A stretch of DNA of 63,975 nt, counting the filler, from Candidatus Woesearchaeota archaeon (GTDB taxonomy: Archaea > Nanobdellota > Nanobdellia > Woesearchaeales > BM511): NCBI GenBank assembly GCA_023266675.1. It is 5 parts of 5 records of this genome, joined end to end, with 100 filler letters (N's around TTAATTAATTAA, not from the genome) between each part and the next. Parts side by side here need not be neighbours in the genome. Positions count along the whole stretch, not along the records: positions 1 to 30,852 come from JAHFPP010000007.1; 4 more parts are not named here. One strand, given 5' to 3'. The position numbers were made by a program, and so were the translations under genes. The stretch's first letter is position 1, and every line of letters starts with the position of its first letter. Below are positions 12,531 through 30,852 of this stretch, piece by piece. The notes beneath the pieces were generated by a model. That model saw nothing but the letters and a program-made list of their open reading frames with translations. It was not told the origin of the DNA and ran no database searches.

Positions 12531-12688
12531 TTAAAGAAATAGAGTAATCGTGTTTAAAAGCGTTGTGGCAACGCGTGTCCAGTGGAGTATTATGATAGTT
12601 TAAATAAGATTAAGTAAGTTGTTTACTACTTTAAAATGGTTTTATTGGAATAAATTTATAAATAAAATTAAATCTCGTTAAGTATAAA

Positions 12689-19268: not shown

Positions 19269-19412
19269 TAAATCACCTTTATTCTATTGTTTCTTAAACA
19301 AAATTGAAATCTGTTACTTTATAAATATATCCTTTAAAATCTTCAAAGCATAGTTTTAAATAGTTAATGAGCTTTACTAGATATATCTTATAGACGACAA
19401 GGAGGGTTTTAA

Positions 19413-20577: not shown

Positions 20578-21024
20578 TTAATTCTTTGTTTTTACAATTA
20601 AATCAAACATTTCACTTTCAAGATAATATGCCCGCTGATTGTTCTCAAGCTGAATAAAAGAAAGCTGAATACCTTTTTTTATAATACTTTGAATCTGAGA
20701 TTTGATTGTATTATTTGACTTTGAAAGTTGTGATGCAAGATCTCCATAAGTGTATTTCTTGTTTTTTGAAACTGTAAAAATATGAAGTATTTCTTTTTCT
20801 GAGACTGTAAGATTTGACTTTGCATCCTCAACTTTCTTGATTAAATTGTTTTCTGATTTTCTTTCATTAAAAATTGATGCGTCAACAGGTTTTTGCTGTT
20901 CAATTAATTGAAGCCTTTTTTCAATATGAAGTATTTTTTCAGTTAATTCCTGATTTTCTTTTCTTATTTTTAGAAATGCCCGCCGTAAAAGTTCATCCCG
21001 GTTATTATCACTTTCAAACCCCAT
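20578..21024 (-). CDS. Coiled-coil plus winged-HTH DNA-binding protein
   Basis: LTVSEKEIL...TYGDLASQLSKSNNTIKSQIQSI HTH followed by a wing ending RAYYL. Confidence 0.75.
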   Translation of the reverse strand: MGFESDNNRDELLRRAFLKIRKENQELTEKILHIEKRLQLIEQQKPVDASIFNERKSENNLIKKVEDAKSNLTVSEKEILHIFTVSKNKKYTYGDLASQLSKSNNTIKSQIQSIIKKGIQLSFIQLENNQRAYYLESEMFDLIVKTKN

Positions 21025-21086
21025 AAGATTAGTTTGCCAACATTATATATAAATCTTATCAAAAATAAGAAAATAATTCATAATCG

Positions 21087-21183
21087 GTCGTTTAAACGAT
21101 GAAGTTAGTCGTTTAAACGGCATTTTTTGTCGTCTATAAATTCTTAGTCGGTCGTTTAAACGGCAGTTTAAACGATTAAACGG
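21087..21183. repeat. Phased palindromic GTCGTTTAAACG repeats (iteron-like array)
   Basis: Copies at 21087, 21108, 21129 (degenerate) and 21151, plus partial copies at 21166 and 21176. Confidence 0.85.
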
Positions 21184-21319
21184 CATAAAATTATGAATTA
21201 TAATAATTATGTAAAAAATCATTAAAATAACATGTTTAAAAACAGAATATTTTGGGGTATAATTGTATAAAAGATTATGTAATAAAAAGTAAAAGATTGA
21301 AAAAAATAAGAAAAAAAGT

Positions 21320-21380
21320 AGCTCAGCAGTTACTATCCGTTCATCATCCATATTCAGCTGGGGATAACTTCCTCATCGCT
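21320..21380 (-). ncRNA. Box C/D methylation guide sRNA 1
   Basis: Minus strand reads AGCG-ATGAGGA(C)-AGTTATCCCCAG-CTGA(D')-ATATGG-ATGATGA(C')-ACGGATAGTAACTG-CTGA(D)-GCT, with an AGC/GCT terminal stem and an oligo-T terminator. Confidence 0.85.
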
Positions 21381-21464
21381 TCAATCAGTATTAATTATAT
21401 AGAATATAAGTGTTTGTTTTTTAGTTATAAAAATAACAATTATGAATGGCAGTCTTGGAAGATT

Positions 21465-21540
21465 TGCACTCGCTCAGCAGTTACTTCCGTTTGTCACAGG
21501 CATGGCCTCGAATGGTGTTCACTTCTCTCATTGCAAGTCT
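21465..21540 (-). ncRNA. Box C/D methylation guide sRNA 2 (degenerate internal boxes)
   Basis: ATGAGAG (C), guide AAGTGAACACCAT, TCGA (D'), GTGACAA (C'-like), ACGGAAGTAACTG, CTGA (D). D guide nearly identical to sRNA 1. Confidence 0.65.
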
Positions 21541-21623
21541 TGCACTTCCTTAAATTAAGAATGATTTTTTAGTATATAAGCGTTTAGATATCAAAAGATA
21601 TTAATAGCTATAATATGAAAGAT

Positions 21624-26500: not shown

Positions 26501-26575
26501 AAAAAATTTATAACAAGGGGATACTAAAAAATTTATAACAAGGGGATACTAAAAAATTTATAACAAGGGGATACT
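26501..26575 (+). repeat. Perfect 25-bp tandem triplication containing a BRE/TATA-like element
   Basis: AAAAAATTTATAACAAGGGGATACT three times. Confidence 0.95.
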
Positions 26576-26587
26576 ATTACTCATAGA

Positions 26588-26877: not shown

Positions 26878-27090
26878 TTATTTTAATGCAAGAATTATGT
26901 CTGATGACTTTATTGTTCTTCGCCCAGCATGAACTGAATACTTTACTGCTTTTTCAGAAACTTCTTTTGCGAATATCTCAAGCTCTTCCTTAAGCGCTTT
27001 TTTTGCTGGACCTGAAACCCTTAGCGCCCCGCAGTCTTTCATTATTTTTCCCATAGCAGCTAGTGGAAGAAGTTTTTTAACCATATTCAT
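26878..27090 (-). CDS. Archaeal histone
   Basis: LPLAAMGKIMK...RVS...HAGRRTIKSSDI histone fold. Confidence 0.92.
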   Translation of the reverse strand: MNMVKKLLPLAAMGKIMKDCGALRVSGPAKKALKEELEIFAKEVSEKAVKYSVHAGRRTIKSSDIILALK

Positions 27091-29708: not shown

Positions 29709-30851
29709 CTACCCAAACCATGCGCCAAGTCCAGTTTGTTTTTCAGGTTCTTTTCCAAAGACGTCTTCAACTGCTCGCTGAACCAAATCCAAACTTTGTT
29801 TTAGATAAGGAGAGACATTGTATTTTTTTGCCAAACTAATAGCCGGCTCAAGATATTTCACAATTGATCCTTCTGATATTGTGAATATTATTTTACCTGA
29901 ACATTTAGTGCAGACGCCAATCAACGGCGGTCGCCTGAATTTCTCATTGCATTTGACACATCTAAATTCTTGCTGCGAAAACTTACGAAGATTCCCTTTT
30001 ATGTCTTTCATGAAATGCTTTTCAATAACGAGCCTTGCAACATCTGACTCGTCAACTGCAACTATTTTTTCTGCCAAAAACATCTGCCCTCGAAGCTTCT
30101 CCTCCATTGAAGGAAGTGTTTTATATGATGAACACATGACGCCTGAATTCAAGTTAGTCGTATCGTGAGTAAATCCCATTCCTTCATACTGTGCTGGTGT
30201 TGCAAGCACGTCATCAATCTGCCTGACTTTTACTTCCCACGGATTCTTAAAGAGTAATGCTGCTTCATAAAGTTCAAGCGGATACTTCCATGCAATATCA
30301 AGCCCATGGACTTCGTCGTCAACTTCTGATGGCACAATCATTGAAGTTAAAACAAGCGGTGCGTCCATTGTTCTTGAACCACGCCTGTCAGGAAGAAACG
30401 TTCTTGAAAAATTAAGCAAAGCATCAAGAAGCATCATAACACACGCTTCATCCCCATCACAGTTTCTTCTCATTGCAGCATGAAACATTGGGTGGCAGTA
30501 CATTCCTTGTGTTCTTGAAAATCCAATTATCCTTCCAACCATCCCTGCGCTTGTGTGAGGAGCAAGTCCAATGACAAGAGTTCCAAGAAGGTCATCCCTA
30601 GTTTTAACGTGATAATAAGCTTTTTCTCCATAAAGTGTTTCAAGAAGTTCATCAATGAATTGACAAACTCTTATCAAAACAGTACTTGAGAATTCATCCG
30701 GTGACTCCTGTGAATCTGGAAGGATTATGTCCTGCGGTAAAAGTTCAAGTATCTGCTCATCGTTTTCCAAAACAACTCCATGAATGTCTTTTATGTATCC
30801 AAGTTCATGAAGCTTTGCAACACCAACAGATACTTCTTTTGGTTTGAAATG
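29709..30851 (-). CDS. polC: DNA polymerase D large subunit (DP2), C-terminal part; 5' end cut by gap
   Basis: GLAPHTSAG, RRNCDGDE catalytic motif, MDAPLVL, zinc finger CVKC...CTKC, PIP-like QTGLGAWF. Confidence 0.97.
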   Translation of the reverse strand, partial: HFKPKEVSVGVAKLHELGYIKDIHGVVLENDEQILELLPQDIILPDSQESPDEFSSTVLIRVCQFIDELLETLYGEKAYYHVKTRDDLLGTLVIGLAPHTSAGMVGRIIGFSRTQGMYCHPMFHAAMRRNCDGDEACVMMLLDALLNFSRTFLPDRRGSRTMDAPLVLTSMIVPSEVDDEVHGLDIAWKYPLELYEAALLFKNPWEVKVRQIDDVLATPAQYEGMGFTHDTTNLNSGVMCSSYKTLPSMEEKLRGQMFLAEKIVAVDESDVARLVIEKHFMKDIKGNLRKFSQQEFRCVKCNEKFRRPPLIGVCTKCSGKIIFTISEGSIVKYLEPAISLAKKYNVSPYLKQSLDLVQRAVEDVFGKEPEKQTGLGAWFG

Positions 30852-30852
30852 A

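Follow-up and report, generated by a model that had tools for sequence, protein, structure and literature searches.

A phased array of palindromes upstream of a winged-helix gene in a Woesearchaeota genome as the probable self-operator of a DPANN protein family

In the partition centromeres parS/ParB, parC/ParR and tubC/TubR, as well as in the AspA site of pNOB8 and the SegB sites, the centromere lies upstream of the gene that encodes its own adaptor protein. Iterons of the RepA/RepE/pi and lambda O systems are bound by monomers, and archaeal origins of the Orc1/Cdc6 type contain origin recognition boxes (ORB) or mini-ORBs, which are TTCCA..GGAAA-type dyads that in many cases include a G-string and that flank the unwinding element, usually in inverted orientation. 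Autoregulators of the MarR/ArsR/Lrs14 type (BldR, ST1710, Lrs14/AbfR) are small proteins that contain a winged helix-turn-helix (wHTH) and have palindromes before their own genes, and Lrs14 is said to bind its own promoter. Lrs14 proteins combine the wHTH with coiled-coil dimerisation, as described in an excerpt of PMC11841832. This work deals with an array of short palindromes located upstream of a gene coding for a 148-amino acid (148-aa) wHTH protein in the genome of a Candidatus Woesearchaeota archaeon (GCA_023266675.1). The DNA analysed, hereafter the window, is a stretch of 63,975 nucleotides in which positions 1-30852 are a single contig (C26, JAHFPP010000007.1) and the other parts are further contigs separated by runs of N. 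The assembly has 1.22 Mb (1,224,635 bases) in 83 contigs, with 34% GC and a completeness of 95.9%, and the public run carrying this stretch is labelled as a groundwater metagenome. Although a reading made from the sequence only had proposed a replication origin, the array is probably a multi-site self-operator of the adjacent protein, a member of an uncharacterised DPANN family.

The repeats described in the sequence-only reading are real. The 12-mer GTCGTTTAAACG is found exactly at 21087, 21108 and 21151, and with up to 2 mismatches it occurs 10 times in the window when both strands are considered, nine of these matches being located within 21087-21184, versus a chance mean of 3.68 and with none of 100 shuffles reaching 10. 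This 12-mer had been considered palindromic in its full length, but the true palindrome is its 10-mer core CGTTTAAACG, which is exact at 21089, 21110 and 21153 and has near-copies at 21165 and 21173. All five window matches to this core with up to 1 mismatch are inside 21089-21182, and with up to 2 mismatches the window is not enriched (19 matches versus a chance mean of 26.8). The whole genome contains five CGTTTAAACG occurrences, three in the array and two within open reading frames (ORFs) of 418 and 586 aa, and since there is no other intergenic copy in the assembly the only evident target is the upstream region of the gene itself. The array was also the sole cluster of at least three identical 10-bp palindromes within 120 bp in the 1,224,635 bases scanned, and no intragenic copies were found in 20578-21024 at up to 2 mismatches.

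On the strand of the gene (20578-21024, minus strand) the order of the elements is P5, P4, P3, a central element, P2, P1, a 35-nt spacer, the TATA box and the ATG at 21024, and the first repeat is 63 bp from the start of the gene. The proximal composite unit (21079-21098) includes the palindrome P1 (21089-21098) and a tail, and the second one (21104-21119) includes P2 (21110-21119) and the tail CGACTAAC, both on the minus strand. The central element (21121-21151, minus strand) is not palindromic and carries one CGACTAAG tail, and it is followed by the distal sites (21153-21182, minus strand), which are the exact P3 (21153-21162) and the copies P4 (21165-21174) and P5 (21173-21182) with 1 mismatch each. 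The copy at 21129, previously taken as a degenerate repeat, is not a decayed palindrome and belongs to this central element. The palindrome centres are at 0, 21, 64, 76 and 84 bp; because 0, 21, 64 and 84 correspond to whole turns, copies 1, 2, 3 and 5 are on one face of the helix. A directional CGACTAAG-like tail accompanies three of the five palindromes, always in the same orientation, and the repeat unit is therefore a composite of about 20 bp, within the 17-22 bp considered for direct repeats at helical spacing.

The TATA box TTTATATA (21046-21053, minus strand) is centred about 25 nt before the ATG of the 148-aa gene, which is the usual archaeal distance from TATA box to start, and a leaderless or near-leaderless mRNA is predicted from this geometry. 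The same box is found at the same distance in an orthologous locus (226-233 of L020, see below). All the exact and 1-mismatch copies of the palindrome, five candidate operator sites in the control region of the gene, lie upstream of the TATA box at distances of 36-140 bp. This gene is monocistronic, and the PAN gene converges on it. Metatranscriptome contigs from the same sample mapped only on 21455-21546 and on a short stretch of PAN, and they were uninformative about expression of the gene or the array.

The orthologous locus is on a metagenome contig of 1537 bp (L020), in which PAN is 95% identical over 175 residues and 76% identical over a further 82. The gene order is the same as in the window: 3' end of a small RNA (sRNA) gene, T-run, array, TATA box, wHTH gene and convergent PAN. 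The L020 array contains four copies of CGATTAATCG, at 104, 116, 168 and 189, four CGACTAAG tails and no copy of CGTTTAAACG, and CGATTAATCG is absent from the entire window genome assembly. When both arrays were aligned the palindromes fell in place, with positions 3 and 8 altered jointly in every copy, and the central element and the tails were nearly unchanged. Going from the distal to the proximal sites, the window has intervals of 8-12-43-21 and L020 of 12-52-21, a difference due to one extra 10-bp tail motif in L020; as 10 bp is about one helical turn, the phase is kept. The recognition helices of the two proteins differ at three positions (KSNNTIKSQIQ in the window, KSSNTVKAQIQ in L020). 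A concerted and symmetric change of the palindromes together with a conserved phase is what selection on the binding sites of a dimer predicts.

That a long helix plus a wHTH is encoded next to the array is shown by an AlphaFold2 (AF2) model of the 148-aa protein, with a mean predicted local distance difference test (pLDDT) of 85.2. The model has an N-terminal helix of 41 residues (4-44), a second helix and then a wHTH composed of the helices 74-85 and 93-100, the recognition helix 104-117 and a beta-hairpin wing (122-134), with pLDDT values of about 90 or higher in these parts. Prediction of a homodimer with two copies was uninformative, with a score of 0.08 against a mark of 0.42. No Pfam or NCBIfam model reached its cut-off for this protein, the HTH matches being all sub-threshold (HTH_36, E 0.0099, 16.1 bits, cut-off 25), and members of the family matched the Lrs14 (12 of 17) and Sta1 (11 of 17) models weakly. 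The best Foldseek matches were the MarR-type MepR (E 3e-4), a Methanosarcina regulator and the Lrs14-type AbfR2 (E 2.1e-3). An exhaustive fold alignment against 48,161 chains gave SmtB (Z 10.3), ArsR/MarR chains (Z 9.3-9.8, the MarR type at 9.8) and the Methanosarcina regulator (Z 9.8), so the best fold matches are DNA-binding repressors. No Cdt1, Rep or Orc family and no ATPase were found among the Pfam hits at E ≤0.1, and RepA/RepE/pi/lambda-O-type chains were absent from the top 50 fold matches. UBP, a nucleoid protein that binds Sulfolobus origins, has a beta-hairpin saddle structure according to an excerpt of PMC12141716 and was set aside as unrelated.

Close homologues of this protein are rare, with two others (63% and 51% identity) among 5.8 billion clusters and 14 homologues at E ≤0.001 among 1.84 billion representatives; identities to the closest proteins overall are 63%, 56% and 51%. 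A profile built with the homologues detected the family in 37 of 61 genomes of the order, counting the window's own genome, mostly as a single copy of 170-260 aa, and in one of the three other genomes of the window's own taxonomic family. The genome of the window has no paralogue. The neighbours of the protein in the atlas are mostly from Nanobdellota and Woesearchaeota (DPANN), and the protein family, which is uncharacterised, seems to be limited to DPANN archaea; the literature listings, as far as they extended, contained no paper on this family or mapping a DPANN origin. No relative was found in the viral collection. Contig searches with the single protein yielded no further orthologous DNA, the 3' half of the sRNA used as a DNA pattern retrieved nothing, and a search with a narrower alignment returned only six bacterial LuxR/sigma-like loci, which were discarded as irrelevant. 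In 28 of the 29 family loci, where 55 neighbouring ORFs were scanned, the genes found beside the family members encode AAA_18 kinases (5 loci), RsmD-like methyltransferases (6), Xer-type recombinases (4), ArsR/S-layer proteins (4) and PadR (3), and no Orc1/Cdc6, MCM or ParA was present among these ORFs.

An autoregulatory array, which was one of the alternatives in the sequence-only reading, is the best-supported explanation, as the sites are close to the gene's own promoter, are unique and covary with the protein in L020. According to the mechanism proposed, the 148-aa protein would form pairs through its long N-terminal helix, and each pair would read one 10-bp palindrome with the aid of the directional tail. 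The presence of four to five sites spaced by whole turns may permit the co-operative assembly of several pairs on one face of the DNA, and the resulting complex, directly upstream of the B recognition element (BRE) and the TATA box, would set the transcription of the gene itself. This position of the sites, upstream of the BRE/TATA, suggests activation or architectural control rather than a simple occlusion of the promoter. The locus shares with the MarR/ArsR/Lrs14 autoregulators the small wHTH, a possible pairing helix and the palindromes before the gene, and the fold matches are to chains of this type, although membership in these families is not supported by the family models. Other differences are that the long helix is C-terminal in Lrs14 and N-terminal here, that this locus has four to five phased sites, all of them upstream of the TATA box and none over it, and that the family members seen are all from DPANN archaea.

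Several observations weigh against the self-operator. The sites are upstream of the TATA box instead of over it, which is not the classical geometry of an archaeal repressor. Compared with what a typical winged-helix dimer binds, 10 bp make a short palindrome, and the directional tails point to a site of greater complexity or to an additional factor. The central element, of 31 bp, is better conserved than the palindromes, and the self-operator provides no explanation for it. The winged-helix fold is generic and the winged-helix domains of ORC also reach Z 8.7, so fold alone cannot decide the function. The expectation that homologues are preceded by an array holds in L020, with palindromes that read CGATTAATCG, and fails in distant members, in which 2 of 27 had any 8-mer repeated at least 3 times within 300 bp upstream, with no excess over the background of 22 in 305 windows from the same loci. 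In addition, L020 is the sole orthologous locus with DNA found, and its wHTH gene, split into three reading-frame pieces, and its PAN, an essential gene, are both frameshifted. The frameshifts are probably sequencing errors and not signs of pseudogenes; occurring in both genes, they indicate that L020 is error-prone, and errors of one or two bases in its fine spacing are possible. They also make the tblastn identity of 42% too low, and the in-frame protein pieces of the window and L020 are about 60-68% identical by hand count.

The AT-rich DNA described beside the array does exist, as the tract 21186-21320 (135 bp, no strand assigned) is 85.9% AT and falls in the top 0.09% of windows of equal size, but the role of unwinding element attributed to it is not sustained. 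The genome contains 41 regions at least as AT-rich, two of them on C26, the tract shrinks to about 40 bp in L020, and the repeats flank it on one side only. It begins with the T-run that ends the gene of a C/D-box sRNA.

In the same-family genome G001, whose PAN shows 81% identity, this region consists of PAN, a single sRNA gene and Trm5, PAN and Trm5 being separated by about 150 bp that contain neither the wHTH gene nor the array, and in G002, also of the same family, PAN is followed by two sRNA genes and the module is absent at that place. The module is therefore an indel, and the profile found no member of the protein family in either genome. In 10 of 10 relatives the main Orc1 scored 420-443 bits, each genome having also at least 1 weaker hit of 90-297 bits, and a DP1-like gene is directly after the main orc1. 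Upstream of the main orc1 of G001 there are inverted TTCCACAGGAAAC boxes and an AT-rich stretch, and this region is a textbook ORB origin, following the layout of repeats and AT-rich DNA beside the gene of a DNA-binding protein that is described in an excerpt of PMC4010727. The CGTTTAAACG palindrome plus tail is indeed unlike these boxes, as had been noted from the sequence. Across the window's genome TTCCACAGGAAAC was not in excess at up to 2 mismatches (42 matches versus 48 for a reversed control).

The search for orc1/cdc6 genes recommended for this assembly gave a mixed result, because a divergent paralogue is present and the main orc1 had no match. The paralogue, on the contig C1, is the only Orc1/Cdc6 over the cut-off (192.5 bits) and shows 30% identity to the main Orc1 of G001. 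C26 and the 748-762 kb region of the complete relative genome G019 are collinear, and in G019 orc1, DP1 and PolD DP2 come next, at 764-770 kb. Residues 797-1176 of DP2 (window 29709-30852) run off the end of C26, and nothing in the assembly matches the N-terminal part of DP2 (first ~796 residues), DP1 or the main orc1. The truncated DP2, the missing DP1 and orc1 and the synteny point to an assembly gap holding the canonical origin, and the simplest reading of these data places this origin about 5 kb past the end of C26, about 15 kb from the array. The GC skew of the 30.8-kb contig follows the gene strand, with many changes of sign, and is uninformative on the origin.

The proposal that the array is itself an origin, with phased iterons for a neighbouring non-Orc initiator and the AT-rich tract as unwinding element, was the first choice of the sequence-only reading and is highly improbable in the light of these results. 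It would account for phased repeats of ~20 bp beside 135 bp of 85.9% AT, for the predicted DNA-binding nature of the adjoining protein and for the presence of a divergent Orc1 paralogue without the main Orc1 in the assembly, and it has a precedent, since an excerpt of PMC4010727 states that non-Orc winged-helix initiators such as WhiP and capture from mobile elements are possible at archaeal origins. The locus resembles both the ORB-orc1/cdc6 arrangement and oriC3-WhiP in having repeats and AT-rich DNA beside the gene of a DNA-binding protein (excerpt of PMC4010727). However, there is no ORB-like dyad and there are no inverted repeats flanking the AT tract, which is not conserved, and the neighbours are the wHTH gene, PAN, sRNA genes and Trm5 instead of orc1/cdc6. 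The protein is a single winged helix of 148 aa without AAA+ module. The initiator of a WhiP/oriC3-type origin is Cdt1-related and has tandem winged helices; the model of the 148-aa protein has one winged helix, and its Pfam hits at E ≤0.1 include no Cdt1 family. With iteron origins the array shares directional units of ~20 bp, the spacing of two turns and the position beside the gene of the putative binder, but no Rep-type protein with two winged helices was found (no Rep family at E ≤0.1), the locus is not in a plasmid or virus context, and the palindromic cores suit dimers and not monomers. The one-sided repeats, the 41 equally AT-rich regions, the lack of a paralogue, the absence of the module at this place in the same-family genomes, the orc1 and DP1-like arrangement in 10 of 10 relatives, with the ORB boxes of G001, and a GC skew that merely follows gene strand also argue against an origin here, and a second one so close to the canonical origin expected beside the orc1-DP1-DP2 cluster past the contig end would be unusual.

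Three other explanations compete with the self-operator. A different factor could bind the palindromes or the central element, the array then controlling the gene as an ordinary target or being an architectural element; this is unlikely, and it would explain why the central element is better conserved than the palindromes, why its core resembles a dispersed-repeat motif (9 genomic matches to the degenerate motif, when about one was expected by chance in a rough hand estimate) and why tails that a symmetric dimer does not justify are directional. The site of a general factor would hardly be missing from all other intergenic DNA, as this palindrome is, and all its copies changed together while the recognition helix of the adjacent protein changed too. 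Quite unlikely is a centromere-like function, in which the protein would coat the array as a unique origin-proximal mark for segregation or chromosome organisation. As in partition centromeres, a unique array of phased short repeats with several sites is upstream of the gene of a small DNA-binding protein, the putative binder, and the specificity shifts with the lineage; moreover, C26 contains replication genes (RFC, a Cas4/Dna2-like nuclease, FEN1, histone and PolD DP2) and orc1 is expected ~15 kb away. On the other hand, no NTPase partner (ParA/SegA, ParM, TubZ) is present in the operon or among the C26 ORFs scanned and the gene next to it is the convergent PAN, the locus is a chromosomal one that the family does not conserve, being missing at this position in G001 and G002, and in genomes with a family member on the contig of the main orc1 the two genes are separated by 31.5 kb (G010), 328 kb (G019) and 198 kb (G028). 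A broader version of this idea, that the module is a DPANN-specific 'address label' formed by the protein and its private phased array, an origin-proximal nucleoprotein landmark, centromere-like or origin-organising, whose specificity would have been rewritten between close lineages from T/A to A/T at both symmetric positions of every site, is equally doubtful. Finally, the gene and the array could have arrived as a cassette and be the remnant of a small inserted element with little or no host function now. The block of ~770 bp between the PAN stop and the sRNA gene is in fact an indel relative to G001 and G002 and close homologues are few, but the block edges show no integrase, transposase or terminal repeat, no relative was found in the viral collection and the wider family is present in 37 of 61 genomes of the order, mostly as a single copy. 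The intact ORF, the conserved promoter and the concerted change of the sites in L020 argue for selection, and a remnant is very unlikely.

A copy of the central-element motif, TTATAGACGACAA, is also located at 19388-19402 of the window, 11-25 nt upstream of the PAN start codon, and counts among the 9 genomic matches to the degenerate motif. In the dispersed repeat family of this genome (G000), a TATA box and ~13 conserved bases are followed by GTCCAGTG, which is often doubled, then by an inner motif similar to TTTATCGTCGACAAA and, ~34 nt on, by a second GTCCAGTGG. Copies are found, for example, at C1:34380-34429 (about 935-990 of L005), C76:13109-13232, C57:7996-8045, C33:6925-6967 and 12577-12585 of the window, C1, C33, C57 and C76 being contigs of the same assembly. 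There are 51 occurrences of GTCCAGTG, of which roughly 15-20 clusters are promoter-like, and some copies of the family carry a long insert with a palindromic hairpin. A search of the element in Rfam gave no match, and the family could be composed of small-RNA genes, a miniature inverted-repeat transposable element (MITE)-like element or a regulon operator at transcription starts.

One copy of this family is ~500 bp downstream of the divergent orc1 paralogue. The ORB-like repeats TCCAGTGG found at that distance were discarded as a unique origin because they belong to a family dispersed over many contigs, whose copies have a TATA box of their own, and an ORB-like hit with 1 mismatch near the end of C46, another contig of G000, was rejected as it is within apparent coding sequence. 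In the region 13100-13850 of C76 a copy of the dispersed element contains TCCAGTGGAAAC, which resembles the classical ORB core, and after this copy come 210 bp with 90% AT and an ORF with two repeated HTH-like units. A 90-aa gene alongside has as its orthologue in G019 the gene that immediately precedes the origin/orc1, in the opposite orientation to that expected from simple synteny, and this region may be a piece of the real origin region. In the window, three perfect tandem copies of the 25-bp AAAAAATTTATAACAAGGGGATACT were found at 26501-26576, between a tRNase-Z-like gene and a 73-aa ORF, at a site that corresponds by synteny to where the pre-orc1 region of G019 starts, the archaeal histone gene being the next one (26878-27090, minus strand).

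The genes surrounding the module, after the array in the direction of Trm5, include a C/D-box sRNA gene (21320-21380, minus strand) that gave a sub-threshold match to snoPyro_CD of Rfam (29.2 bits, E 0.0011; gathering score 45) and whose 3' half is identical in L020. A second C/D-box-like sRNA gene (21470-21546, minus strand), with C, D', C' and D boxes read from the sequence, has relatives after PAN in G001 and G002. A metatranscriptome contig of 106 nt maps on 21455-21546 with a depth of 64.5 and 3 differences, and it runs 9 nt further into sequence from the other end of the RNA, a wrap-around that could come from a circular sRNA or from a tandem copy at another place. At 526-2897 the window also contains two adjacent Gly_rich_2 genes with 46-47% GC and a strong negative GC skew.

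These results remove a tempting but false origin call, in which phased repeats and AT-rich DNA mimic a replicator but behave like the private operator of a regulator. They also indicate the probable whereabouts of the real origin of a fragmentary genome, past the contig end and beside the missing orc1-DP1-DP2 cluster, an assembly gap having removed this canonical origin together with essential replication genes. If the landmark reading were true and such modules recurred, they would constitute a previously undescribed class of chromosome marking in DPANN archaea without a ParA-type partner. The comparison with L020 provides a clean natural case in which a DNA-binding protein and all its putative sites shift specificity jointly, with the phase kept over a 10-bp insertion, and the three residue changes in the recognition helix are candidate determinants of this specificity. 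A single binding experiment could annotate the family across many genomes.

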